63,804 bases of DNA, filler included, from 14 parts of 14 records of this genome joined end to end with filler, not necessarily neighbours in it, one strand, 5' to 3'; shown: positions 10,531-60,653, counted from the whole stretch's first letter. Program-made: numbers and translations. Notes: generated by a model not told the origin, from the letters alone.

Positions 10531-10781
10531 CGTCACGAAAAGTGAGTCAAATCACTCATTAGTCCATGCCTGACTCATTTCAATCTGGGTACATGTACAG
10601 GTAGATCTACATGCATTTGAACATTGAAGACCTGATTCACCGTCACTGCTATCGCGCCCGCGGATACGCAAGTGGAAGTGCTGCTCGGCACCAGCTTCTT
10701 GGTCACGCAGGAGCAGCACCCGCGCCGTTTTTACGAACCTCGCGAGTGCAGCCGTTAGACCTCTGTGGCACTCACTCACGC

Positions 10782-13607
10782 ATGCGGGGCGCATTTGCCT
10801 GGGGCTGGGCGTTCTGTCTCTGCTGCGTGCTGAGCAACCCCGTGGGAGTGCCCGGCGCTGCAGCCACACCCGCAGGGATTGATGACAGTGAGCATGCGCC
10901 GCCAACCCCAATGGTGGCTGAGCCGCCCAGCACGCTACTCACCCCGGGCGCCACGACACTGCCTCTGAAGCTCACGACGGCGCAATCGACGACCTGCAAG
11001 TGGGGACTGGATGACGTGCCGTTTGGAGCCTTGCCACACACGTTCGTGGGCACTGGCAGCACCTCGCACAGCACCACCCTCACGGGGCTGTCTGGGACGC
11101 TGGAGCTCACCACGGTGTACGTGCGCTGCGCCACCTACTCGGAGGCTCTCACACTAGTCTACCGCAGTCTGCCCAACACCAAGGCGACGCCCTTTCCACG
11201 GCTCGGCAATCTTTGGGGCAGCGCCAACTTCAAGGGGCACCCTGAAGGCCTCGCGTACGCAGCAAAGAGAGCCTCCCTGTGGCTGGGCTCGGACTGGACC
11301 GCAGCAGAGATCGCAGAGCTGCGCAAATACAACCCCGGGTCGATCGTTCTGACCTCGATCAACGCCTGCGAAACGACCCGCCAGGATCTGCCGGATGACT
11401 ACTACCTCACAAATGTTACGCGGCCTGCCACTACGAAAGGGCGGCTGCAGTCCTGGCCCGGGGCGTGGCGGCTCGATCTGACGAATCCAGCAGTGCAAAA
11501 GATGCAGGCTCAGCTCATGTACGGGCTAGTTGTGTACGGTGGCGAGGAAGGTCACCCTGTCAACGGCAGCGGCCCTGCGCCGCTGACCTACGACGGTCTC
11601 TTCGTGGACAACGTGTTTATGGATGATGGTGCAGGGGTGAACAGGCAAGACATCTTCCACAATAACTTCATCCCGGCCGACCCCGTCACCGGCAAGCCAA
11701 TCCCCGACTTTAGCGAGCGCTGGCGCAGCGGGATGGTGGCAGAGCTGCAGATGTTCCGCGAGATGATGCCACACGCACTGATGGACGGACACGCGATGCA
11801 TCTCGAGGACGCCAACATCAGCGCCAGCTTCAACGCCATCTCCATCGGATTCACCACCCCAGAGATCATCGAAGGCCGACAATCATTTGCCGAGGGGTTT
11901 AAGATGTATCAGGACTGGATGACGCTACCACAGCGTGAGCCACACATTACAATGGTGGAGTCAGCCGTGCGCTTTCAGATTGGCTATGGCTATGGCTTTG
12001 GGCATAATCTCACAGTGCAAATTTCCAAAGATTGCGAGAATAGCAACTCGGTCGCTGGCGCGCCCACCCCCGCCATTGGCGACGCGTGCTCAAACCCTGT
12101 GGCTGCAGCGCCAGGGTTCCTCAGCCCTGAGACGTATCTTTTCTCGCGTTCAGAGTATCAGTACATGCGGTTCGGCCTTGGCTTTACGCTCATGAACGAT
12201 GGTTACTACACCCATGAGCTTGGTGACTCATGGCACGGCATGGACTGGGACTACGATGAACTTCGCTTCAACCTCGGTCTCGCGACGAGCAACGCCTCCA
12301 TGGTCGGCGACGCCAACCCACCACCATTGCTCCCATCAATCCCGCTGCGGCCCAGCACATGGTCGCTCTTTGTGGATCAGCGGACAGCTCCACCAGGACT
12401 CGCCAACCTGACTCAGGATTCAACGGAGAAGCCTATGGCTCACTCACCACCCTCACAGCGTATCGATATTGCGAAAAACGCCCCGAACATAGACGGCATA
12501 GACCTGCAGCAGAATGGACTAACCTTCCACACCGGTGGCTATCAGCTGAGCTTCTGGGCTAAGTCTAGCAAGAACAAAACCCCCGTGACCCTTGACACAA
12601 GAAAACAATCGTCTCCCTGGACAGGCTTCGGATTGATGAAGCAGATCTACCTGACTACAGCCTGGGCGCAGTACAACGTGACCTTCGTCTCGCCAGCCAA
12701 CAGCACGGAGGCTCGGCTGTCTTACTACCTTGGCTTTGTGCCAGGAGACACGACGGTGTGGATCAGCACGGCCATGCTGGCAGGCACCGATGTCCCGCCA
12801 CCGATCATGCGGCGTGAGTTTGAGTGTGGTGTTGTCCTCCTCAACGGTGATACACTGCCACACACAATCGCTGCCGGCTCCGGCCTGAAGCGGCTGACGG
12901 GACAGCAGGCACCACGCTACCAGTACTTTGTCGATGATAACTCGAGCGCGTTCAAGCCCAGCAGCAGCAGCGTGTGGGTGTGGGGTAACTTCAACAGCGG
13001 GTACAAAGGAGGGGGCAGCGAGGAGGTTCGCCCGGTAGACGGGTTCTATCACCACTGGGAGCGTGGCGCACATACTGCACCAGCGGGTAGCAGCGCCACC
13101 TTTGACTTGCAAATTCCAGCGACGGGGAAGTACAGCCTGAAGATGTGGTGGCCAGCAGCTGTGCCAGCGCGCGCAGGCTGGTCCACAGCAATGGTGGTGA
13201 GTGTTTCGAGCGGCGGTGCCACTGCTAGCGGCAGCAGTGGCGCAACTACTAGCAGCAGTACCGGCAGGAGCACAGTCGTAGCCTCGTTGCCAGTAGATCT
13301 GAGAAAAGATGGTGGAGACATGTGGTATACGGTCGCGAAGTCCGTCCAGCTTGCAGCGGGTGATTCGACACTCACAATCAGCTGCCCATCAAGCATCAGC
13401 GGTGGCGGTGGGGGGGGCATGTGCGTAGCTGATGCTGTGCTGGTGGAGAGCGAGGTGCGATGGAATGATGGTTTGGCAGTAGTCAACAATGAGCATGAGG
13501 TTGAGAGCGGGAGTGATAGTGGTGGCGGGGTTGCGCTGCAAAGCATGGATGCGATCGTCCTCGCACGGACAAACCCACCGTCACATTGCGGCAGCAGTAG
13601 CGTCTGA
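10782..13607 (+). CDS. secreted putative glycoside hydrolase (GHL15-like TIM barrel) with CBM4/9-like and C-terminal beta-sandwich modules
   Basis: Signal peptide MRGAFAWGWAFCLCCVL; LDLTNPAVQ...YDGLFVDN; MRFGLGFTLMNDGYY; WDYDEL; CBM4/9-like YQLSFWAKS...LTTAWAQYNVTF; RREFECGVVLLN; golvesin/CBM-like ATFDLQIPATGKYSLKMWW...VADAV. Single intronless ORF. Confidence 0.65.
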   Translation: MRGAFAWGWAFCLCCVLSNPVGVPGAAATPAGIDDSEHAPPTPMVAEPPSTLLTPGATTLPLKLTTAQSTTCKWGLDDVPFGALPHTFVGTGSTSHSTTLTGLSGTLELTTVYVRCATYSEALTLVYRSLPNTKATPFPRLGNLWGSANFKGHPEGLAYAAKRASLWLGSDWTAAEIAELRKYNPGSIVLTSINACETTRQDLPDDYYLTNVTRPATTKGRLQSWPGAWRLDLTNPAVQKMQAQLMYGLVVYGGEEGHPVNGSGPAPLTYDGLFVDNVFMDDGAGVNRQDIFHNNFIPADPVTGKPIPDFSERWRSGMVAELQMFREMMPHALMDGHAMHLEDANISASFNAISIGFTTPEIIEGRQSFAEGFKMYQDWMTLPQREPHITMVESAVRFQIGYGYGFGHNLTVQISKDCENSNSVAGAPTPAIGDACSNPVAAAPGFLSPETYLFSRSEYQYMRFGLGFTLMNDGYYTHELGDSWHGMDWDYDELRFNLGLATSNASMVGDANPPPLLPSIPLRPSTWSLFVDQRTAPPGLANLTQDSTEKPMAHSPPSQRIDIAKNAPNIDGIDLQQNGLTFHTGGYQLSFWAKSSKNKTPVTLDTRKQSSPWTGFGLMKQIYLTTAWAQYNVTFVSPANSTEARLSYYLGFVPGDTTVWISTAMLAGTDVPPPIMRREFECGVVLLNGDTLPHTIAAGSGLKRLTGQQAPRYQYFVDDNSSAFKPSSSSVWVWGNFNSGYKGGGSEEVRPVDGFYHHWERGAHTAPAGSSATFDLQIPATGKYSLKMWWPAAVPARAGWSTAMVVSVSSGGATASGSSGATTSSSTGRSTVVASLPVDLRKDGGDMWYTVAKSVQLAAGDSTLTISCPSSISGGGGGGMCVADAVLVESEVRWNDGLAVVNNEHEVESGSDSGGGVALQSMDAIVLARTNPPSHCGSSSV

Positions 13608-36088: not shown

Positions 36089-36188
36089 NNNNNNNNNNNN
36101 NNNNNNNNNNNNNNNNNNNNNNNNNNNNNNNNTTAATTAATTAANNNNNNNNNNNNNNNNNNNNNNNNNNNNNNNNNNNNNNNNNNNN
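36089..36188. other. artificial contig linker
   Basis: 44 N + TTAATTAATTAA + 44 N. Confidence 0.99.
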
Positions 36189-39100
36189 CTGCTGCTGCTG
36201 CTGCTGCTGCCGCTGCTCGTGCTGCTGCTCGTGCTGCTCGTGCTGCTGGTTGTGCTGATGAGTACCTGCGCTCTGTGCCGTCGAGTCGATCGTTTCAGAG
36301 TGACATACCTGAAATGTTATTCTTGCTTGATCTTCTAAGCCTTTAATATTCGAGATCGTCATCTTGCATTTTGGGCAGATGTCACCAAATCGGGTGGTAT
36401 CACCGGTGCTGTTTGTGCAGGCAGAATCAACACCACATCGGCCAACCGTAGCACTCTCGTCGAGGTCCTTACCATAGCGGACAAGCTTCAGAAACTTTGT
36501 CCTGTCGGCCTTCGATTCAAACACCTGGAGCAGCTTCGTTTTGCGAATCTTCATCAAACTATCGTTTGCGATCTTTAGCCGAGACTCACTTACAAGTAAG
36601 GGCTTGGCGGCCAACGCGAGACACGTGATTGCTGCCAGGATGCCACCAGCAAGCATGCAGAAACGACTTCCGTCGATCGCAGTCCATGACAAGATCGATA
36701 GTGAAGGTAGATCGAACATATACCATACGCAAGCGATGCTCAGAATTCTCAGCGTCGTTGACCAGTGCCACGTGGTAGGTTCTTGTGCAGTATTATGAGG
36801 GAATATTTCATCGTCAATTGCTGTCATCTCATCTGTGATATCGATCTCTGTGGGGGTTAATTTCGACAGCTCTTCTGCAAGCTTGCATTTAACGTCTTCA
36901 AGTGTGTTGTGTGTATGGCACGACAACATGATGGTGTAATAGTTCAAGAAATGCCCTGAGATTCTCAGGTAGATTTGCTTTCCATCAAATCCATGCTCAT
37001 CGTCAATATCGTTATCATGACCATACATCTCAAACGCGGAATCCTGAGGAGACTTCTTTATCTGTCCTTGCGTCCGGCTTGCCCCCCTTTCCCAGTTGGT
37101 ACGCTGATTGATATCTGACGTCGGCGGTGCAACCCCTTCATAGGCGCTAGCAGAACGCGCAGCGATTTTTTTGACATGAGCTCGGAAGGTCGTCCCCATC
37201 ATACCTGTGCTCTCAGCAGCAACATCACGGTCGAATGCCTCAACTCGCAACCAGTCAGGCAGTGAGGTGCTTGCAAGTGCTTGTGCCGCATGTCTTGTGT
37301 TCGTGAACGACACCAGCGCCCATGCTCTCCCAGTTTTGTGTCGAACCGTGACGCCCAGCACGGTTCCAAACTGGGAGAAAATTTGGATCAATATATCCTC
37401 ATTCACATCTTCAGCCATGCACGTCACCTTCACTAGATCTTCCTGCGAAGCGATGGACGACATGTTGCGGATGGAGTACAGCTCACTCATGTCAATGAAC
37501 GACGTCGACCATCTGTCCTCAGTGCTTTTATGAGACAGCTTGCGTCCATACTCAAAAAGAAACTTGATAAGGTTGGCACGGTCTTTCAACTACAAGCAAC
37601 ACAACGTACATGAGCATGATTCATGTTGCTGGCGCACTATCACAGAATATCTAGTTACATGGCTGACACGTTTGCAGAATGATGACTACTAGACGCACCG
37701 CAATCACATTCTTTGAGTCCAGTGTGTTGAAGTCAGCACGGAGAACGAATAGCACGACGACTCGAATCACTGCTAGCTGACCCTTTGGCTCTAGCTTGGT
37801 CATTTGTGGGCCCATCATAGTGGACGCGCTTGCCTCAAGCTCGCGAAAGACAGCCTGCAGAGTCTCCAACAAAAATCGCACCTCCTTGTGCCGCACCAGC
37901 TGCTCAATGTATTGCCCCCAATGCATAGCAAACACATCCTGTGCAAACGATCGCGTACTGCCTCGTCCCAGATTGGCAATAATCGATTGCTTAAGCAGTA
38001 CTTGGCAACAAGACGAGTGTCCACTGGCTCTGTAGTCAATGATGTGCATGTTGTTCGCACGATTCGCAGAGTAGCACACTTGCATGATGGTGAAGATGTG
38101 GTCTTTCAGATATTCAACTTCGCCCAGTTCCTGTTGCGCATTTGTGCGAAGAACAACGTCATCACTAATGATCGCTTCATACATCTTCACCACCGCGTCC
38201 GCAATTCCCCCAGATCCTTTGACGACGAATACACTGTCATTACTCTGCACTGCAGATTGCACAGTTTTAAGCGTTACCGGTCCTCCCCCAACCACAATCG
38301 TTACAAGTGGTATCCTATGCATTTCGGCATATGTTCGCTCCAGTTGTGCACGTAGTAATGCGGCACACTGGTCGCGCTGGGGTGCATCTGGATGATTGTC
38401 ACTAACAAGAATGAAGCCTTGGTGCCCTCTTAACTCCGGTGGCGTAAACTCTTTCATCGTGGCGCTGCCCTGGCGGCTTGGCCGGAGCTCTTCGTCTTTA
38501 AATACTATCTCCTCATCACCGTCAACGTACGCAGGGCGTGTGCTACCTGAAGCTTTACCAGCGTAAACACGTGACGCCGCGGCCACGCCGAGGCAGGATA
38601 TCTCGCGTCCATGTGCGTCGGCGTATTTCTGAAACGCTTTACCAACCAGCTGCATGATGCCGGCACTTGTGCCGCCAGTAACGACCAAGGCGCGGTATGT
38701 TTCGGTTGATCTCAGTATGTCTTGCGCGACGCCTGTGGTCACATCTTCTGACAGATCATTGAAGTTATTAGCTGCACCACCCGTCACCGAGAGGACAATC
38801 TGGAATTTGCGCCCACGCATAATTCCATCATACGCGTGCAACATTCCAGCTAGCGAAGCCACCGATGCATCGCTTGGAACTTCATGAAACCGACGCCTGT
38901 AGCTGTTTGTGCTGGTGAGGGTTTCTGTCTGAAGCCATCCTTGTCTAGTGTTGGGATTGACGATGCCTCTTTGGCCCATCACTGCCACGATGACGACGTG
39001 CGAGTTAGCGAGTGGATGCACTGTGGAAGACGTAAAACGCGGTAGCAACACGCATGGTCGATGGGCAGCAGGTCTTGTGTAAGCTCACGATAAAAAACTG

Positions 39101-39648
39101 TCTTGGAGAAGCTCGTATTTCTCCGCCGCAGCGCATAGCTTATGTTGCCCAGGCCACACCTTTCCTGCCATGCCTTCTGGATGGCACTCACTGCCGCCTC
39201 TTTACCCGCGTAGTTGTTGATAGCCTTGACTCGGACTCGACCGACGTTCTGTCTAGCTGTCCACGAATTAGACCACGTCATCGACTGTAGATCGATGATC
39301 CTATCACCCAAATTCACCGTGTTCCGATTTTTTTTCATGGCATCTTTAATTTTTTCTTGCTCAGCCGCCGGGTACGCGCGCCACGCCTCTGTCTCCGTGA
39401 CGTCCATACTCATCGTAAACTCAAACTGACAAACCATATCCGCAGCAAACGCCCTCAACTCATTCGTGTATGAGCCGATCGAGTCGATTGAGGCCACCAT
39501 CATGCGCGTCTCTTCGAGTGACTCAGCCACTGTCTCATCGGCGCCAACAGATGACTCAGAGTGATCATACGAGTACGTCATGGGGTTCTCCGTCCGACTT
39601 CCTCGGTAAGCATTACTCAAGCGCACCCCTGTCCTGGCGACCTGGCCG
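36189..39648 (-). CDS. WWE + TRPM-type SLOG (LSDAT) + RRM + UBL/2TM multidomain protein (3 exons, truncated at both contig ends)
   Basis: WWE-like WRAYPAAEQEKIKDAM...IIDLQSMT. SLOG LSVTGGA, VTGGTSAGIMQLVG, CLGVA, HQGFILV, LRAQLE, IPLVTIVVGGG, VVKGSGGIAD. TRPM-like A|LKDRANLIKFLFEYG. RRM IFSQFGTV..WALVSF. Introns 39021-39089 and 37590-37698 restore frame. Confidence 0.8.
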
Positions 39649-39748
39649 NNNNNNNNNNNNNNNNNNNNNNNNNNNNNNNNNNNNNNNNNNNNTTAATTAA
39701 TTAANNNNNNNNNNNNNNNNNNNNNNNNNNNNNNNNNNNNNNNNNNNN
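39649..39748. other. artificial contig linker
   Basis: 44 N + TTAATTAATTAA + 44 N. Confidence 0.99.
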
Positions 39749-52819: not shown

Positions 52820-54180
52820 TCACGAACTGCCATCCGGTACCACAAGTCCGAGTTCTGCCATAAGCATCTGCATCATCCCATCGCATTCGATGTGGAAACG
52901 CAGCGTGCAGTGCTTATCCAACGGAGTACGCTGCAAGTTGACGATGACCATTTCGCGCCGCGGCCCGCCGGCGTCTTCGCCAGGAAGCACGTCTTCGTCA
53001 CTGCTCTCGTCCCCGTAATCCTCTTCGTCGTCGCTGTCGCTATCTTCATTCTCGTCTGGCCATTCCCAGCCTAGTGCAAGCAGCTGCAGCACAAAATTCC
53101 CACCGGTCGAATTCATCAGAGCAAAGCGAACATGTAACAAAGTCAATGTGGGGTCCGGTACGCGCGTATGCGTACTGCAAAAGGGACAATAGGCACATAG
53201 CCACATAGCCACAGAGATACTGTTACAAAGCTTCCACGTACCGGCATGTCGCCAACTGGCTTTATCCGCAGCGAAGTACCCATGGCTATCGACATCGTGG
53301 CCTTGCGTGCTCGCCGCTCTGTCCGCCGTACGTGGTCCTTGGGTAGCGCATCGTCCCAGTCTAGCACGTGGTCACGCAACATCCCGCCGCACTCGTCACA
53401 CTTGCGGCCGGTCGGCCGCAAACCGACACCGCCTACATCATCGGCGCGGTGAAATTCGGCGTGACACTCGGAGCAGACTTCGAGGCAGACGTTGCCGTGC
53501 AGCTCAGAGAGTTTGTTGAGCGGCGCTCCCGCCCGCCGGTGCAGACCGTCTACGTTTTGAGTTGCGATGTGGTTGATGTAGCCCGCAGTCACCAGAGCCG
53601 TTAGCGCGTGGTGGGTGAAGGAGGGTTTGACTGCTCCAAATGAACTGGCCAAGCGCGGCTCGGCTCCAGCGCCGCTCGCATTGCGTTTCAGTTTGCCACT
53701 TTCCTGCTGCTGCTTAGTCCAGATGCCATGCGGCCCTCGGAAGTCGGGCAGGCCCGCTGAGGTCGAGATGCCCGCGCCGGTGCAGCACCAGACCCTACCC
53801 TTGTGCTGCCGCAGAAGCTCGGCCAGCTTGGTCACCTTTCGCTGCACAGCCCGAGTGGACTCGCGAGTTTCCTTCAGCCCGCACACTCCGTAGTCGACAT
53901 CTTGCCGCAGCCGTGCAGCGTACCCGGCTACGTTGTTCTCCGGCCCATCCGCTTCGCCTGCGCTGGGCGGGGGCACGAGCGCCCTCGCTTTCTTTCTACC
54001 TGCCTCGCGGGTCACTTCGCCAGCTGCAGCGCGGGCTGCAGCGCCGGCTGATGCGGCAGGGCGCTTCTCGAGGCACCGATTGACGTGCACCTGCCTCTGT
54101 CCTTCGTCCAGCGAACTCAGCGCTGCGCCACAGACCGGGCACGGCTCCACCACTTGCGCAGCACTGCGCTTCGCAGCCAT
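52820..54180 (-). CDS. class IV sirtuin (SIRT6/7-like NAD-dependent deacylase) with N-terminal UBZ-type zinc finger (2 exons)
   Basis: TGAGISTSAGLPDFRGPHGIWT, TQNVDGLH, ELHGN, CSEC/CDECGG, LDWDDALP, GTSLRIKP, IVNLQRTPLD. N-terminal CPVCG...HVNRC. Confidence 0.92.
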
Positions 54181-54990: not shown

Positions 54991-57900
54991 TTAATCAGTC
55001 GGCTTTGCGCTAGACATGAGGTTCGAGACGGTTGCCACGTGTGATACTGGAAACGAGACACCACCCAGTGCAACGGACCTGGCTGTACTAGCAGAACTCG
55101 GCCTCCTGCCGTCGTTGCTGACGCTGCTGCTTGTACCCACACCACTGTCATGGAAAACATCGGTCGACTTGCTCCGTTTCGTGCTTCGTCTTGCCGCTGC
55201 TGATAACGGTCGACTTACCACAACGGGTGGGGTGGCACGATGCGCATGCGTGGATGCGGGCACCGGCCCTGCTGAAGCTGGCCTCGCCCGACGCTGTGCA
55301 AGCTCGTTGCGCAGCAGAGCAGGCTCCTCATGCGGCATTTGCATAGCCATGAGCTGCGAACGCACAGGGTCCGGTAGAGCGTTCTCATTATTGGGGTTGA
55401 CCCACGATGCTGTTGCCGCGACCTCATCGCGCACGAGAAAAGCATTCCGGTGACCATGCGCAGGAGCCCACGTTTCTTCTTCAGGGATTTTCCCACCCGC
55501 AGCGTCTGGCACCGACGGATAGCTTGCGGCAGGTTGACGCTTCCCTGGCTCACTGACTACCTGCTGCACGCGCTGACTCGGTTCATATGCTGCAGCACCA
55601 ATGCTCACTGCTGTGCCAGAGCTCTGCTCCACGCCCGCACTAGGGCTGGCCGAGCGCGGGCGGGTAAAACTCGAAAGCTCTGGTGAAAGCGTAGTGAGTG
55701 TGCCGCCCCAGCTGCCTGCAGACATAGGCCGATCCGTACGATCCGTACCGGAAGCGGATCTCACTACGCCGGGCGGGCTCGCACCCCGTGGAGTCGGATG
55801 CTCCGGACTGCCAGAGTATATGTCGACAATGCCAGCACCTGCTTCTGGTTGCTCTGGGAGTGATGTCGACTGTCGCTTGGCACCAGGCGGAGGTGGACTG
55901 TGCACGGGACCCGGGCTGCCCATCCCGATGGAATGTGCGTCACGTGCCCACAACGCTCTGCCTCGGAAGCCCGCGCCCGCCTCGGCTTTAAGCTGGCGCA
56001 CACGTTCCTCAGTTGTGGCCTTAACGACGGGGTCTTTGCGTCCATGTGCAAACAGCTCAGCAGAAAGCGGTCGTCGGGGTAACTTGTATGCATGCTCGTT
56101 TTCAAACCCCAGCGAAGCGGGCGGGTTGTGAAGATCTACCGCCTCATGACGCAGGTGCCCGGCAGAGTGAGGCCTTGCAGCAACCGCTGCCATCTCCGCC
56201 GCACTCCGCTCCGACTGCCGGACTGAAGTAGTCGCAGCAGCAGAGAGAGGGCGACCTTTCACAAAGACGTCAGAGCCATATCCTGCAGGATGCTGCCCTC
56301 CGTATCCATCCTGAGTGTAGTCGGGTTGTCGTGTCGCAGAGCGTGGGCGCAACGCTGCCTCAGTCGGAGTCTCATATTGCTGCGCGCCCGTAACTTGGTT
56401 CACAAACACAGTACGGCCTGAGCTCTCAGAGATATGAGGTTTCCATCCCGAGGGCAGTTTTGCTCGCGAGTCAACTCCAGCGGCAAACATCTTCTGGAGT
56501 AGAGACGCCTCCTCGACAATCTCACCCCGGGCCTTCGCAGCCTTGCGACGTCGAGCCTCCGCCTGCGTGGACGATTGTACGGTGGCACTCTCTGCAGCTG
56601 CTCTTTCTTGTTCCGCTACCCGTCGCATCGAGGGTCGAGCTGAATAAGGACGCTTCGGTGGCTGAAGCTCTTGTGGCAACGCAGCGGCTCGAGCCACGTT
56701 GGACGCATCAGCATACCGCTCCGCCATTGCAGATGAAGGGCGACGCACACCGTAGCCGGATGTTGCTCCTGCGCCTCGATAAGTGAGTTGCGAGAGCATC
56801 GACTGGTCCATTGACGGGAGTTTTGCATTGGCTGCCATGTCTGACTCTGGTCCGGCATGCTCGTAGTAGTGACTGGCTACCTGCCGCTCACCACGCTTTG
56901 CGTGTGCACGCGCCATTAGGTTGTTTGCCTGAGTGTGCTGTGAGTCCAAGGATAGAACGTGACGAAGCTGAATTTCCTGTGCGGCGCTGCCCGGTGGCAT
57001 CAGCTCAGCCAGCTCCATGCTCGGCACGAGATAGTCCGGATAAAGCTGCAATGCTGTGCGGTGGCAAAAGATTGATCGGCCTTTCCAGCCAGGAGCCCTC
57101 CTCGCACTGACCGCCAACCCAAGCGACGCGAGCACGGCGGCCCGTCCATGTGCCGCCTCTTCGTTTAACTCCCATACGCCGAGCTTCCAACCGGTATTCA
57201 GCGTTCCAACACGAAGCTGCCCAGCGTAGGCACCAGCTCGGAACTTCCCTCCACGCCCATCCCCTTCTGCGCGTCGCTTGTATCCTTCTTGCAGATGGGC
57301 ACATTGCGTGTAGTTGGTGATCGCCTCGTCGATCAGTTTGCGTTTGACTGCCTCTGTGTGATCGTGGGCTGCTTCGGAGACGGGTTCAATCGCCAGGGCT
57401 TGTCGATGAAGGGCTGCAGCCAGGCAGTGGTGAACTTCCGGGCTGCCAGGGTACATGACACAGAGCCGTCGAAGCAATGCACAGGCCTCTTCAAGCTCTG
57501 CAGACGCTCCTAAAGTCCCTTTCGTATCGTCGCCTTGTGCCGCAGGAGGAGTCTGATGCTCCCCATCTTCTATTTCTTCTGCAGAAGAAGAAGAGTTGAG
57601 GAGCAGTAAGGCCAGGTTAGTTGACGCAAGCTGATGGTCGGGGACCGTCTGCAATAATTGTCGAAGCATGGCGGCCGCTTCCTTGACCTGCCCCTGCGAG
57701 CTCAATACGCAAGCCAGGTTGACTGAGACCTTCGCCCGGAGATTTTCTGCGTCCTTCTCGGAACCCCCAGCAGTCACAGCTGCATTCGGTGCCAAAGCTT
57801 TCCTTAAATGCATCTCTGCTGACGATGTTGATTCCTCGTCTTTTCTTTGCAGCAAGAGCGTTGCCAGGTTGTAACGCGAATGTATACATAATCCGTTGTA

Positions 57901-60489
57901 CTTGACAGCCTGCTCAAACTGCTTCATCGCGTCGTCATCGTCACCACGAAGCAACGCAGCCCAGCCCATGCGGTTGAAAAGCTCGGCGCAGTACAATCCA
58001 TCCGCAGATCTTGATATGGCCTCCTTGTACTTTGCGCAGGCTTTGCTGTACGCCTCTTGCTGAAACAAACGGTCGCCTTCCTGTACAACTTCTCTCGTCG
58101 TTGGGCCTGCAAGCTGGGTATAAGTCCAGCGCTTAATTGACTCCCAGCATCCGGGCGGGGCCCCTTGTAGCATATCGAGGACATCCTCCGGCGCGACTCG
58201 GGATGCTGCTTTGTGTCGCTGTTGTAATGTCTTGAATCGTCGATGGGCGAACCACGCCTCTGCGGTTCCGAAGAGCACTCCGCCGCTCAATAGAATGATT
58301 TGCCCCGTCGGAATCAAAGTGCAGGTCTCCAGCCTTGGCACAAACCTTAACCAGGGCGACGATTTTGGCCGTGCCCCCAGTGCCGCGACATCTTCACTTC
58401 CCCAGCTACCTTCTTCCTGCCCACCCCCGCTACCAGCGGCATTAGCTACTGGTGGGGCTGCTCCCCATTCGCAGATGGCGGCTCCAGCTTCGACTAATGT
58501 CGCACCGACAGTAATCCAGGCAAGTGCCGACGCTAATCGCCACGTGCGCCTACCTATGGGCTTGTCGTTATCGCTTCGGCAGCTCATGTACGCGAATAGA
58601 ATGAAACGAAGAGTAGCTAGCCAGGCCACGTCGGCAGATGCACCGCCTGCTTCACCTGGGACACTTGGTGCGGCCCAGTGCAGGTTTATCTGCGGCCCGT
58701 CAAACCAGCACAGAAATCTTCCAGAGGAAATTGTTCCCTCTTCCGTGACTGTCTTGCAGTGAGTGACAGAAGTCCAGGTCAGCCACACACCCAGACACTC
58801 TAACACAAGCACTATAACCAGTATCCGCTCCTTGCGCAACCCATTGCGCCGCCGCTGCTCCAGATGTGACAACGACAGCAGAAGTGTGGCCACGAGAATG
58901 TTGCCCCCGATCGATGTCGCAACCAGACCAAGTAAGGCAACTGTCCACTCGGATGAGTGAGCGTACATTGCGCGCTGCGCTACCTTGACGACCAGTGCAG
59001 TGAGACACAAAATGACTAGGCATGCTGCGATCTTCCATACGATACCCCACGGCGCGACACGACCTTCTGATCGGTCGTTGGCAAGCACCTCACCAGGCTC
59101 GCGTATCGCAACTGAGACGTCCGCACGCGCGGCATCGTCTGGCGGCGACTCGTTTTGTATTGGCGGCTTTGAGCCCAGTAAGTTCTTCAGTGGCGGTGCA
59201 GGGATATACGTGGGTAACTCCGTAAGGCTCCACAGCTCATCAGTGAATCCAAGCGTCGGGTCGGTCCACAGGACCTTGATGGAATGACTCCGACGCAGGC
59301 CCAATTCCCTTGCGATTTTCTCCTCCAACTCAGGCACAGTGCACACAGTCAGTGTCATCGTAAGCATCCCTGCATCGTCTTCGAACATTCGCTTCGGGTC
59401 GACAAACAACGGCGCGAGACGGTCATCCTCGGAGGACACGCGAAGGTGCAGCACTTGTTTACCCTGAACCCGGCCGTAATGCCGCGCCCAAACTACCAGT
59501 AGAAGCACAGTGTTTCGCGCCCAGCACAGTACCAGCACATCAATTAGTGAGGTCGTGAAGTTGTAGTACTGCAGCGTGTCCAGGCCAGCGAAGGACTTCA
59601 GCGAGAATCTCGGAGGTTCCCACCAGCAGAAGACGTTGGTTGGGAAGCCGTCATCATCGTCACACTGCGTAATCGAAAACCAGCCACACAGGGCGAAGAG
59701 GACATCGGCACTTGCTATGACTGCGAGCATGATCGTCGCCCGACGATTCAGCGCGTGTCGCCGTATCGCGGCTTCCATAGATGGAGGCACCCAATCTGCC
59801 TCCTCTTCCTCCTCTGTCTTCATAATCTTGGCCGTGGGCTTGACCAGCCATTCGTGGTGCTCTTCCGAGTGTGCGGGGATGAGCTGGAATCGCTCAGGCT
59901 CGGCAGCTGTGTCGTCATGAGCACCACCGACATCACCTGAGGTATCGGATCTGTCGGTCGCCTGCCCTCCCTGCGGCTGCTGCGCGGCGGGCAGCGGCGC
60001 AGCCATTCCTTGCTGCAGCGAGACGGCGTGCGCAGCCCGGACGTTGCCAACGAGCAGGTGGCGAGCAACCAGTGTGCCCAGCGTAGGGAGCAGCCTCTCC
60101 GTTTCACACACCTTACCCCATGCCAGGCGCTGCCGGGCCACGGCTAGGCGCCGATGCAGCGCTGCGCTCGGCGCCAGGTACTTTTCCTGGATGACAGCGA
60201 GCAGAGCCTCCTCCTCCCCGACCCACTCCTGCTCCAACAGCACATCGATGTCACCGTCTAGCTTCCTTGGGTTGTGCACCGCGTAGATTTCTGCAATCCG
60301 CTCTCGTACTTCCGCCGTGTCGATCGACGGCTCCGGCTCTGGCTCCGGCTCCACGAGTTGCATCGAAAAGTCCAGCTGCCGTTGAATCTGCCACTCTCCC
60401 GACAGCCGTGAGTCCTCGCCGCCCTCCTGCATCTCCTGCTCCACGGCGTCACCACGCCCATCCAGCCCGCCCCGCGTATGCCCCAGCAT
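54991..60489 (-). CDS. large membrane protein: two MENTAL-like 4-TM units, TPR repeats, WW domain, disordered tail with RPxSA repeats
   Basis: 1832-aa intronless ORF. YNFTTSLIDVLVLCWARNTVL resembles the STARD3 MENTAL YNFKTSFFDIFVLAFFRF. TPR-like EGDRLFQQEAYSKACAKYKEAI and SRYNLATLL. WW-like LPSGWKPHISESSGRTVFVNQVTGAQQYETP. Confidence 0.75.
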   Translation of the reverse strand: MLGHTRGGLDGRGDAVEQEMQEGGEDSRLSGEWQIQRQLDFSMQLVEPEPEPEPSIDTAEVRERIAEIYAVHNPRKLDGDIDVLLEQEWVGEEEALLAVIQEKYLAPSAALHRRLAVARQRLAWGKVCETERLLPTLGTLVARHLLVGNVRAAHAVSLQQGMAAPLPAAQQPQGGQATDRSDTSGDVGGAHDDTAAEPERFQLIPAHSEEHHEWLVKPTAKIMKTEEEEEADWVPPSMEAAIRRHALNRRATIMLAVIASADVLFALCGWFSITQCDDDDGFPTNVFCWWEPPRFSLKSFAGLDTLQYYNFTTSLIDVLVLCWARNTVLLLVVWARHYGRVQGKQVLHLRVSSEDDRLAPLFVDPKRMFEDDAGMLTMTLTVCTVPELEEKIARELGLRRSHSIKVLWTDPTLGFTDELWSLTELPTYIPAPPLKNLLGSKPPIQNESPPDDAARADVSVAIREPGEVLANDRSEGRVAPWGIVWKIAACLVILCLTALVVKVAQRAMYAHSSEWTVALLGLVATSIGGNILVATLLLSLSHLEQRRRNGLRKERILVIVLVLECLGVWLTWTSVTHCKTVTEEGTISSGRFLCWFDGPQINLHWAAPSVPGEAGGASADVAWLATLRFILFAYMSCRSDNDKPIGRRTWRLASALAWITVGATLVEAGAAICEWGAAPPVANAAGSGGGQEEGSWGSEDVAALGARPKSSPWLRFVPRLETCTLIPTGQIILLSGGVLFGTAEAWFAHRRFKTLQQRHKAASRVAPEDVLDMLQGAPPGCWESIKRWTYTQLAGPTTREVVQEGDRLFQQEAYSKACAKYKEAISRSADGLYCAELFNRMGWAALLRGDDDDAMKQFEQAVKYNGLCIHSRYNLATLLLQRKDEESTSSAEMHLRKALAPNAAVTAGGSEKDAENLRAKVSVNLACVLSSQGQVKEAAAMLRQLLQTVPDHQLASTNLALLLLNSSSSAEEIEDGEHQTPPAAQGDDTKGTLGASAELEEACALLRRLCVMYPGSPEVHHCLAAALHRQALAIEPVSEAAHDHTEAVKRKLIDEAITNYTQCAHLQEGYKRRAEGDGRGGKFRAGAYAGQLRVGTLNTGWKLGVWELNEEAAHGRAAVLASLGLAVSARRAPGWKGRSIFCHRTALQLYPDYLVPSMELAELMPPGSAAQEIQLRHVLSLDSQHTQANNLMARAHAKRGERQVASHYYEHAGPESDMAANAKLPSMDQSMLSQLTYRGAGATSGYGVRRPSSAMAERYADASNVARAAALPQELQPPKRPYSARPSMRRVAEQERAAAESATVQSSTQAEARRRKAAKARGEIVEEASLLQKMFAAGVDSRAKLPSGWKPHISESSGRTVFVNQVTGAQQYETPTEAALRPRSATRQPDYTQDGYGGQHPAGYGSDVFVKGRPLSAAATTSVRQSERSAAEMAAVAARPHSAGHLRHEAVDLHNPPASLGFENEHAYKLPRRPLSAELFAHGRKDPVVKATTEERVRQLKAEAGAGFRGRALWARDAHSIGMGSPGPVHSPPPPGAKRQSTSLPEQPEAGAGIVDIYSGSPEHPTPRGASPPGVVRSASGTDRTDRPMSAGSWGGTLTTLSPELSSFTRPRSASPSAGVEQSSGTAVSIGAAAYEPSQRVQQVVSEPGKRQPAASYPSVPDAAGGKIPEEETWAPAHGHRNAFLVRDEVAATASWVNPNNENALPDPVRSQLMAMQMPHEEPALLRNELAQRRARPASAGPVPASTHAHRATPPVVVSRPLSAAARRSTKRSKSTDVFHDSGVGTSSSVSNDGRRPSSASTARSVALGGVSFPVSHVATVSNLMSSAKPTD

Positions 60490-60653
60490 GCCTCAGGTCC
60501 GGCCATCTGCCGGTGGGCAGTTAGTGTAGGCCCCCATCAAACGGCGGACCTGGCTCTTCGCGGATCGCCAACCGTTGTTCCGCGCCAGCCAACCGGATAG
60601 AGTCCACAGGCAGGAACTTCCTATCAGGACCCTGCACAGGCACTATTTTGCAA

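Follow-up and report, generated by a model that had tools for sequence, protein, structure and literature searches.

The window, the whole stretch of DNA analysed, comprises 63,804 nucleotides, in which N/TTAATTAATTAA linkers connect 14 contigs that are not linked to one another. The locus described here is confined to one of them, a contig of 3,460 bases with artificial linkers on both sides (44 N + TTAATTAATTAA + 44 N, at 36089-36188 and 39649-39748). Since the window is made of unlinked pieces joined artificially, the neighbouring contigs are uninformative on the gene. The GC content of the contig is 0.51, as against 0.54-0.60 in the other 13 pieces. A single minus-strand gene occupies it, with its 5' end beyond the contig; the 5' part of the gene is absent because exon A is open at the contig end. 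On the other side, the frame of exon C is open as far as the contig end at 36189 via a CAG repeat, in which three assemblies break. The features of the locus are listed below, together with comparisons to L001, an independent metagenome contig that is ~54% identical and has the same part order, and to the related proteins P0002-P0005.

36189..39648, no strand: stand-alone contig with the entire finding (N runs, GC, sequence)
39089..39648, minus strand: exon A, open at the contig end; L001 homologue 52% identical over 188 aa
39225..39434, minus strand: WWE-like segment, exon A aa 72-141, a sub-cut-off Pfam WWE match
39021..39088, minus strand: intron 1, GTGAGC...CAG, phase 1, 68 nt (sequence, L001 comparison)
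37699..39020, minus strand: exon B, TRPM-type SLOG (MHR1/2) and the helical part after it (LSDAT_euk and LSDAT_prok profiles)
38773-38790, 38653-38682, 38269-38292 and 38197-38220, minus strand: SLOG glycine loops SVTGGA, VTGGTSAGIM, VGGGPVTL and KGSGGIAD, respectively
38422-38439, minus strand: SLOG His in PELRGH
38371-38382, minus strand: SLOG Arg in PQRD
37590..37698, minus strand: intron 2, GTGCGT...TAG, phase 0, 109 nt (L001, P0002-P0004, P0005)
36309..37589, minus strand: exon C, to a possible donor CAG|GTATGT at 36308 (sequence)
37545..37589, minus strand: LKDRANLIKFLFEYG, start of a TRPM MHR3-like helix pair (motif in relatives; P0005)
37476-37499, minus strand: FIDMSELY, after the MHR3-like start
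37233..37436, minus strand: RRM, exon C aa 52-119 (RRM_1 profile, model)
36585..36746, minus strand: two hydrophobic helices, aa 282-300 and 308-335 (Kyte-Doolittle)
36366..36437, minus strand: four cysteines, CGVDSAC ... CPKC (sequence only)

Identity to L001 amounts to 52% in exon A, 54-55% in exon B and 44-58% in exon C, and parts of the locus are bridged by contigs of other runs (X1 record 1 corresponds to 36247-39031 and X2 record 21 to 38957-39155). Marine variants that are ~98% identical differ from the contig at 72 positions; among the 40 differences listed, 25 are synonymous versus 15 non-synonymous in the predicted frames, and 13 of the 22 listed for the exon C frame are synonymous. 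The gene is under purifying selection. Two relatives carry the source name Picozoa sp. A giant-virus or contaminant origin of this lower-GC contig was set aside, given the shared spliceosomal introns and a negative scan of viral contigs (11 pattern matches, 0 confirmed). An Rfam scan of the contig gave no match, the rest of the window yielded no paralogue when searched by tblastn with the three exons, and PADLOC models found nothing in exons A and B (for exon B, no match at E<=0.1). A PADLOC hit of DpdF to exon C (E 0.01) was dismissed as noise.

An earlier sequence-only reading of this DNA had proposed in-frame splicing of the gene, and the support for both introns comes from comparing the contig with L001 and P0005; RNA joints across either intron were absent from the contigs of four runs. 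The reads of these runs were kept as contigs, and the RNA-library contigs cover the exons in part, the uncovered parts being uninformative. Similarity to L001 breaks off precisely at the shared donor of intron 1, C|GTGAGC, and restarts at a shared acceptor. This is the second of two acceptors (CAG|TG ATG GGC, ending 38982); it preserves the frame and gives an intron of 107 nt. Intron 2 is matched in place and phase by an intron of L001 (L001 2542-2648), and in all of the P0002-P0004 ORFs similarity is lost at this point. P0005 is one ORF that spans the junction of exons B and C collinearly (E 3e-50 to exon B, 3e-5 to exon C). L001 has an additional 73-nt intron (2814-2886) where the contig is uninterrupted, and DNA variants carry 2-nt insertions within intron 2, at 37605 and 37613. 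One RNA-library contig (X18 record 12, 38870-39078) extends 58 to 97 nt into intron 1, and another stops 6 nt within intron 2.

The TRPM-type SLOG domain is located in exon B, where the sequence-only reading had placed it. The LSDAT_euk profile (PF18139) matches at 38125-38817 on the minus strand with 78.5 bits (E 7.3e-22; profile positions 24-241 of 266; gathering cut-off 25.7 bits), and LSDAT_prok scores 65.3 bits. The best solved relatives of exon B are TRPM2 proteins, with E-values of 3e-15 to 4e-12 over ~215-260 residues, including the TRPM2 chanzyme 8sr7 (E 4.4e-15) and human TRPM2 6mix (E 3.9e-12). P0002-P0004 are 55-66% identical to exon B, and 0 longer relatives of it (771-2200 aa) were found among 8000 candidates. 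The four glycine loops, GH(199) and D-A-P-Q-R are conserved in four family members, and the loops, the His and the Glu/Asp-x-x-x-Arg agree with near-invariant columns of 113 relatives. The retention of the glycine loops, the His and Asp-x-x-x-Arg suggests that the cleft most likely binds a nucleotide-derived small molecule. According to the accessible part of one study, the residues of human TRPM2 that contact ADP-ribose include Y295, R302 and R358 (PMC6759353). When exon B is aligned to human TRPM2, the R302 position is occupied by Arg and the R358 position by Gly (Leu in the choanoflagellate chanzyme), and the loop bearing Y295 is missing. The Arg at the R302 position is near-invariant across LSDAT_euk relatives and therefore not specific for ADP-ribose. 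ADP-ribose sensing by this domain is something we infer, with an ADP-ribose-like molecule as the leading guess for the ligand.

The ALxDRxxxIxxLxExG motif that had been read after the SLOG domain is present as A|LKDRANLIKFLFEYG, straddling the second splice junction (37699|37589). In a loosened form it was recovered in 20 of 153 related proteins, all of them long and TRPM-like, always after their SLOG, and aa 443-484 of P0005 align to this MHR3-start region (E 3e-5). The visible MHR3 comprises the first motif only; PF25508 (TRPM2-like MHR3/4) matched neither the three exons at E<=1 nor P0005 at E<=0.001. Profile and fold order together make a solid case for a putative RNA-binding RRM further along exon C, in agreement with the sequence-only reading. 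RRM_1 (PF00076) scores 27.2 bits (E 3.6e-6) here and 40.5 bits (E 2.5e-10) in L001, with a gathering cut-off of 20.7 bits, and the model has the order strand-helix-strand-strand-helix-strand at aa 52-119 with pLDDT 51-73, the only usable part of a single-sequence AlphaFold prediction of exon C (pLDDT 34.6). We take LVKVTCM (37416-37436) to be RNP2-like and GRAWALVSF (37305-37331), with its two aromatic residues, to be RNP1-like. An RRM was detected in 0 of the 149 related cluster representatives scanned.

The two hydrophobic helices are separated by a 7-residue loop and give Kyte-Doolittle peaks of 1.69 and 2.27 (19-residue window); by hydropathy only, they would form a membrane hairpin without an intervening pore loop. 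Of the UBL/2-TM region proposed earlier, the pair of hydrophobic helices is borne out and the ubiquitin-like part is unsupported: at E<=1 Pfam gave no such match in exon C or its aa 224-424, and the model has pLDDT <40 there. Ion_trans was unmatched in the three exons at E<=1, and the visible part contains these two hydrophobic helices only, which agrees with the earlier statement that no 6-TM pore lies within the contig; judged by its sequence, the visible part is not a channel. No homologues were found over the hairpin when exon C relatives of 256-818 aa were sought among 6311 candidates. The four cysteines may form a zinc ribbon, a possible assignment for a region in which Pfam has no match.

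Besides the WWE-like segment, exon A comprises a Ser-rich start with YRGS (39597-39608) and a conserved helix, AIQKAW (39168-39185). The match of the Pfam WWE profile (PF02825) proper covers aa 87-130 (39258-39389) and reaches 17.3 bits at E 0.006, rising to 18.8 bits at E 0.0022 with a trimmed piece; both values are lower than the gathering cut-off of 21.1 bits, and the 58%-identical L001 homologue has no WWE match at E<=10. The AlphaFold model of exon A, built on a two-row alignment, has a mean pLDDT of 49.5, and its predicted strand-helix-strand order is compatible with WWE. From this poor model Foldseek returned nothing at E<=0.001 (best E 0.072) and a wide VIA-align search generic folds (best Z 6.8), neither with a WWE entry; ESM Atlas gave no usable match for aa 60-186. 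Solved chains searched with a joint profile of exon A and the homologous L001 sequence gave four matches (E 0.69-1.2, the best a ribokinase) and no WWE.

A sister family of environmental proteins, the P0008 cluster (P0173, P0176, P0178; 727-732 aa), carries WWE and LSDAT_euk in a single uninterrupted ORF. The likeness to the window protein extends to a low-complexity start with the rare YRGS, followed by WWE, LSDAT_euk and a terminal 'R.RAELV.F' helix. However, identity to the window SLOG is only 27%, the ORFs end before the position of the window's RRM, and pairwise tests of the front segments show no significant likeness. The WWE scores of the cluster (22.4 bits in P0008, 20.3-21.5 bits in P0178, P0173 and P0176) are at or nearly at the Pfam cut-off, whereas that of the window is lower. 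In the SLOG tree, P0008 is among the nearest outgroups of the window clade, with an unsupported fork (SH-aLRT 30). The accepted WWE of P0008, run as a control, likewise found no WWE chain by sequence, and the profile test against solved chains is insensitive because this control failed. An hhalign comparison of the exon A/L001 profile with P0008 gave E 0.44, and a shuffle test against the WWE region of P0178 was not significant, the observed score being reached in 761 of 2000 shuffles for the window and 329 of 2000 for L001. Both hhalign and phmmer chose the register expected for WWE, NTVNLGDRIIDLQSMT against ASIDLGEYKYDFRRMT. Searched with phmmer against 153 proteins, exons A and C matched nothing at E<=10, and the P0008 N-terminus matched only itself in the same set. 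A WWE domain in front of the SLOG is possible, with weak support from these data. Of the three profiles named by the sequence-only reading, LSDAT_euk (78.5 bits) and RRM (27.2 bits) were borne out and WWE (17.3 bits) was not, and its two ADP-ribose modules reduce to one SLOG ligand module and one doubtful module.

Our best explanation, held with roughly even confidence, is that the contig contains the greater part of a single spliced nuclear gene from a marine protist, encoding a TRPM sensing head combined with an RRM and a membrane hairpin rather than a pore. The sequence-only reading had joined this combination to a WWE domain; the WWE is possible but unproven, the arrangement of TRPM-type SLOG, RRM and hairpin without a pore is borne out as far as the DNA reaches, and the order of parts is kept in ~54%-identical L001. 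This domain arrangement is new and made of known parts. The protein would begin with a disordered Ser-rich stretch, continue through an alpha/beta segment (the candidate WWE) into the complete TRPM sensing head, made up of the SLOG domain (MHR1/2) and the first MHR3 helices, and proceed via the RRM and a linker to the two-helix hairpin and a helical tail with four cysteines. The SLOG cleft, which keeps the family loops, would still bind a nucleotide-derived ligand. Clamshell closure, the pore-opening movement of TRPM2, would in this protein act on the adjoining RRM and switch RNA binding on or off, or alternatively on protein assembly at the membrane; the front segment, if a true WWE, would add recognition of an ADP-ribose-type mark. 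A further step, which we consider distinctly unlikely, is that the protein is a eukaryotic counterpart of bacterial SLOG sensor-effectors: a membrane-tethered receptor for an NAD-derived messenger with RNA capture or release as output, WWE targeting and use as a stress or antiviral switch. The messenger would be ADP-ribose or a cyclic ADP-ribose isomer, the RNA would be held or released by the fused RRM, and the WWE would bring the protein to ADP-ribosylated targets. A stress or antiviral role is speculation.

Several other explanations bear on parts of this picture. There is a substantial chance, somewhat short of even, that the front segment is a lineage-specific small domain and not a WWE, which would make the protein a SLOG, an RRM and an anchor with a single ligand-binding module. 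The sub-cut-off score, the unmatched L001 homologue, the profile search led by a ribokinase, the hhalign and shuffle results and the structure searches without a WWE entry, though from a poor model, all point this way. On the other hand, WWE is the sole Pfam family reported on the segment, with E-values of 0.002-0.006 already corrected for library size; the alignment programs picked the expected register, the P0008 cluster has WWE in the same position before SLOG and shares YRGS, and the failed control marks the sequence test as insensitive. LOG phosphoribohydrolases belong to the SLOG superfamily, and the exon B domain might be such a nucleotide-processing hydrolase rather than a sensor, with the protein modifying or cleaving nucleotides or the ends of RNA held by the RRM. 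The intact Rossmann-like glycine loops and the adjoining RNA-binding domain would fit, yet we regard this as highly unlikely: the LOG motif is PGGxGTxxE, exon B has GGGPVTLKT at that position, without the Glu, and its nearest relatives by far are TRPM-type (LSDAT) domains. In TRPM2, such domains serve as binding modules, as described in the accessible part of the same study (PMC6759353).

The extent of the gene matters as well. It is truncated 5' and perhaps also 3', so that additional domains, perhaps even a pore, may lie beyond the visible part. That the visible part is a piece of a larger protein, with its true output (a channel, NUDIX, PARP or other enzyme) past one or other end of the contig, and with the RRM and hairpin inserted in a longer sensor-effector protein, appears unlikely to us but deserves weight. 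Exon A is open at the contig end, the matching L001 ORF continues ~220 aa further upstream with no stop, X1 record 3 and X2 record 22 run 355 and 147 letters past 39648, and the exon C frame is open to the other end, with a good donor at 36308; Ion_trans is found in 43 of the 149 related representatives. However, Pfam recognizes nothing at E<=10 in the extra ~220 aa of L001, PF25508 is unmatched, and in TRPM channels the pore comes directly after MHR3/4, whereas here an RRM, a ~160 aa linker and a hairpin follow. Least probable of all, in our view, is an artefact of the gene model, be it a chimeric assembly, two genes (a WWE-like ORF and a SLOG ORF starting from MGQRG) or a dead gene. In its favour, the Met that begins MGQRG is shared by 4 of 4 family members, its ATG overlaps the stop codon reached by exon A when left unspliced (TGATG, 38977-38981), an RNA-library contig reads through intron 1, and the contig is short, unplaced and of odd GC. 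Nevertheless, the stop-start overlap is absent from L001, where the unspliced frame continues for ~60 unrelated residues, and the donor, acceptor and phase of the intron are common to both. L001 repeats the part order, as do contigs from other runs; synonymous changes outnumber non-synonymous ones, and the sister family has WWE and SLOG in an uninterrupted ORF.

If the contig does encode a TRPM head with an RRM and a hairpin, the head with different partners, perhaps also a WWE, would represent a portable ligand-sensing module, and conserved channel-less heads could offer a simple soluble system for finding what TRPM-type heads bind. The recurrent WWE-SLOG pairing, certain for the P0008 cluster and a possibility for the window protein, would lend independent contextual support to ADP-ribose-type ligands. 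The TRPM head is thought to have been joined to the TRP pore early in eukaryote evolution, according to the accessible part of one source (PMC13143021). Should the sensor-effector reading be true, the protein would be a surviving example of a TRPM head working without a channel, in picozoan-like marine protists.

A eukaryotic LSDAT-type SLOG outside a TRP channel, as in the window protein, is also known from SPIKE1 of the Tetrahymena ciliary tip; SPIKE1 is a microtubule-bound ciliary protein for which the accessible part of the source reports no WWE, RRM or hairpin, and it is likened here by description (bioRxiv 10.1101/2024.12.02.626492). TRPM2 (8sr7, choanoflagellate chanzyme; 6mix/6pus, human) resembles the window protein in its glycine loops and His, in an Arg at position R302 and in the motif with which MHR3 starts. 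The window protein differs in having Gly for R358, in lacking the Y295 loop, and in that its visible part contains an RRM and a hairpin rather than PF25508, Ion_trans and NUDIX. The paper said to have founded the study of SLOG domains, Burroughs et al. 2015, may already list the architecture in its text or supplements; our literature search found no paper combining SLOG, WWE and TRPM. ThsA of the bacterial Thoeris system unites, in one chain, a SLOG that binds an NAD-derived signal and an output domain. This is the same sensor-output logic as proposed for the window protein, although its SLOG is of a different family and a Sir2 NADase, rather than an RRM, serves as the output. PARP14/PARP10-type proteins combine RRM, WWE and ADP-ribose-related domains in one protein; unlike the window protein, they contain macrodomains and a PARP catalytic domain but lack a SLOG. 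The WWE of the window protein being only a candidate, the likeness lies in the association of RNA-binding and WWE modules with NAD/ADP-ribose chemistry.

The 14 pieces of the window, each of 3,051 to 7,477 bases, do not form one stretch of a chromosome and are joined by a constant linker (44 N + TTAATTAATTAA + 44 N). Since the joins are artificial, genes on adjoining pieces are unlinked and offer no context, and gene-neighbourhood readings across the linkers are void. The finding is confined to one piece of 3,460 bases (36189-39648), which has the lowest GC content of the 14 (0.51, against 0.54-0.60 in the other 13) and is filled by three long minus-strand open frames, the plus strand carrying short frames only. 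An Rfam scan of this piece returned no family, and no paralogue of exons A, B or C was found in the rest of the window, where genes include melibiase, Sir2, GH92 and Skp1. The stretch itself was detected in seawater and marine metagenomes from 14 studies; P0005, an ORF-level relative of exon B, and one member of the P0004 cluster are labelled Picozoa sp. in their sources. Open frames in the window, with their coordinates, include:

39647 down to 38979, minus strand: frame A, an open frame with WWE, below its cut-off, as its single Pfam match
53146-54180, minus strand: Sir2-family ORF, 102.9 bits, on an unlinked contig
54994-60492, minus strand: 1,833-residue open frame with TPR repeats and a WW domain, on an unlinked contig
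10605-13604, plus strand: 1,000-residue open frame with no Pfam match, on an unlinked contig

The last bases of exon A, ...TTT TAT C, precede the donor GTGAGC of intron 1, for which two candidate acceptors lie in the same frame, the first (CAG) ending at 39021 and the second at 38982. Exon B ends with ...ATT GCG before the donor GTGCGT of intron 2, and exon C starts at 37589, after TAG, with TTG AAA GAC. The reading frame is kept over both predicted junctions, and the motif that the sequence-only reading placed after the SLOG domain is present as NVIA-LKDRANLIKFLFEYG, spanning the intron 2 junction. L001, an independent metagenome contig of 3,124 bases, has counterparts of all three exons, in unchanged order (52% identity over 188 residues for exon A, 54-55% for exon B, 58% and 44% for exon C). 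Its intron 1 donor (TAC C followed by GTGAGC) is in phase 1, as in the window, its acceptor (CAG followed by TG ATG GGC) is identical to the window's second acceptor, and past the donor the unspliced frames of the two contigs share nothing; intron 2 lies between the same two codons in both (phase 0). L001 has an extra intron of 73 bases (2814-2886) just before the RRM, where the window is continuous, and its frame therefore depends on splicing. The similarity of the ORFs P0002, P0003 and P0004 (66, 63 and 55% identical to exon B) ends exactly at the exon B end. P0005, an ORF of 540 residues, matches exon B up to residue 421 (E 3e-50) and, at its residues 443-484, the opening 41 residues of exon C (E 3e-5); as this single ORF covers exon B and the start of exon C, both parts belong to one protein. 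A one-base frame break within the SLOG of L001 (about 1981-2084) can be put down to a sequencing error or to a variant, its cluster mates P0004 and P0159 being intact.

In other runs, contigs span the passage from exon C into exon B and that from exon B into exon A. Variants from marine metagenomes, at about 98% identity to the contig, show 2-base insertions inside intron 2 only, and among the 40 differences listed of 72, 25 are synonymous in the predicted frames (11/17 in exon B, 13/22 in exon C, 1/1 in exon A). The in-frame splicing proposed earlier thus has comparative support from L001 and P0005, but no RNA splice joint was reported at either intron in four runs, all as contigs. One metatranscriptome-library contig (38870-39078) extends into intron 1, and a second begins within intron 2, 6 bases in; libraries of this kind can contain DNA. 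On the comparative evidence, which is good, we take the gene to be real and spliced. Separately, in one contig from an RNA library (X17 record 10, depth 3.1), 7 bases are missing at 39513; the site falls in a Ser/Glu-rich, variable part of exon A in which L001 is gapped too, and the gap could reflect an error, a variant or another small intron.

The exon B frame matches Pfam LSDAT_euk with 78.5 bits (E 7.3e-22) and LSDAT_prok with 65.3 bits. The nearest solved protein by sequence is the choanoflagellate TRPM2 chanzyme (E 3e-15 to 4.4e-15), with human TRPM2 at E about 4e-12, which confirms the TRPM-type SLOG recognized earlier. The four family members share, with little or no variation, four glycine-rich loops, a His and an Asp-x-x-x-Arg, and these match near-invariant columns of 113 more distant relatives. 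In the human TRPM2 cleft, three contacts of ADP-ribose are named: Y295, R302, and R358 along with the N-terminus of a helix (PMC6759353). Counted along the alignment, the R302 position is the Arg of PQRD in the window protein and the loop bearing Y295 is absent; the R358 position is a Gly in KGSGGIAD, and a Leu in the chanzyme. As judged from sequence, the SLOG fold and its general nucleotide-binding features are therefore intact, with ADP-ribose no more than a candidate ligand. Residues 303-369 of exon B (37919-38110; SSCCQVLLKQ...) align weakly with residues 681-746 of human TRPM2 (TTCLQLALEA...), at -2.6 bits, which is not significant.

Beyond the SLOG, LKDRANLIKFLFEYG...FIDMSELY looks like the start of MHR3, and a loosened form of this motif occurs in 20 of 153 relatives, every one long and TRPM-like. 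Neither the MHR3/4 profile PF25508 nor Ion_trans matched the window gene, bearing out, in the available sequence, the earlier remark that no TRP pore is visible. The RRM proposed alongside it is confirmed in the exon C frame (RRM_1, 27.2 bits; Pfam cut-off 20.7) and reaches 40.5 bits in L001, and in its predicted model, at pLDDT 51-73, strands and helices follow one another as expected of an RRM. A segment of about 160 residues separates the RRM from two hydrophobic helices, seven residues apart, which probably form a membrane hairpin; after these come a helical stretch, four cysteines, a possible donor (36308) and a CAG repeat. The proposed ubiquitin-like domain found no support in exon C from either Pfam or the predicted model.

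The identity of the front segment is more finely balanced. WWE is the sole Pfam family reported for exon A, at 17.3 bits (E 0.006), below the cut-off of 21.1, and reaches E 0.0022 on a trimmed piece; the predicted strand-helix-strand order is compatible, and hhalign and phmmer both pick the expected register against a real WWE. Four environmental proteins of a separate cluster (P0008, P0173, P0176 and P0178) combine WWE (20.3-22.4 bits) and LSDAT_euk in one uninterrupted ORF, with the WWE ahead of the SLOG, in the position of the window's WWE-like segment, and the ORF ending at the same 'R.RAELV.F' helix. However, the 58%-identical L001 segment lacks any WWE match, exon A and P0178 are no more similar than shuffled sequence, and fold searches with the exon A model, itself poor, were empty. 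A profile of exon A and its L001 homologue found no WWE protein among solved chains, a test that P0008's own WWE also fails. Overall, we rate a true WWE fold slightly above even. Counted in favour, too, is that this cluster and the window gene's family both carry YRGS in their disordered start (window 39597-39608; L001 upstream ORF, 2-1363; P0173, P0176 and P0178, residues 82-89). This motif, noticed after the fact, is absent from the other 175 proteins compared (129,966 residues in all) and may be a shared linear motif, e.g., a phosphorylation site.

A Pfam scan of 149 cluster representatives related to exon B detected Ion_trans in 43, WWE in one (P0008) and RRM in none; P0006, P0010 and P0020 matched no Pfam family. 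A quick maximum-likelihood analysis with 100 SLOG cores, restricted to rows with at least 150 core residues (53 of 152 searched were excluded), groups the window with P0002-P0004, P0005 and P0010 (SH-aLRT 98), with P0011 and P0008 next, without support.

The analysis establishes a conserved, selected, spliced gene that sets a TRPM-type sensing head beside an RRM and a probable membrane hairpin. We infer a nucleotide-derived ligand for the head, whose clamshell movement would act on the RRM or on assembly at a membrane rather than on a pore. In the main rival explanation, the decisive output domain would instead be encoded past one of the contig ends. The contig ends in a CAG/CAA repeat (36189-36247) encoding in-frame poly-Gln, at which the window assembly breaks, as do contigs of two other runs. 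For the sensing head coupled to RRM or membrane assembly, an ADP-ribose-like ligand, the reading of an ADP-ribose mark by the front segment and a role in stress or antiviral signalling are speculative. A literature search, with the founding SLOG paper outside its reach, returned no paper combining SLOG, WWE and TRPM. The component domains are individually known, and a non-channel LSDAT protein, SPIKE1, is already reported in a preprint (bioRxiv 10.1101/2024.12.02.626492).
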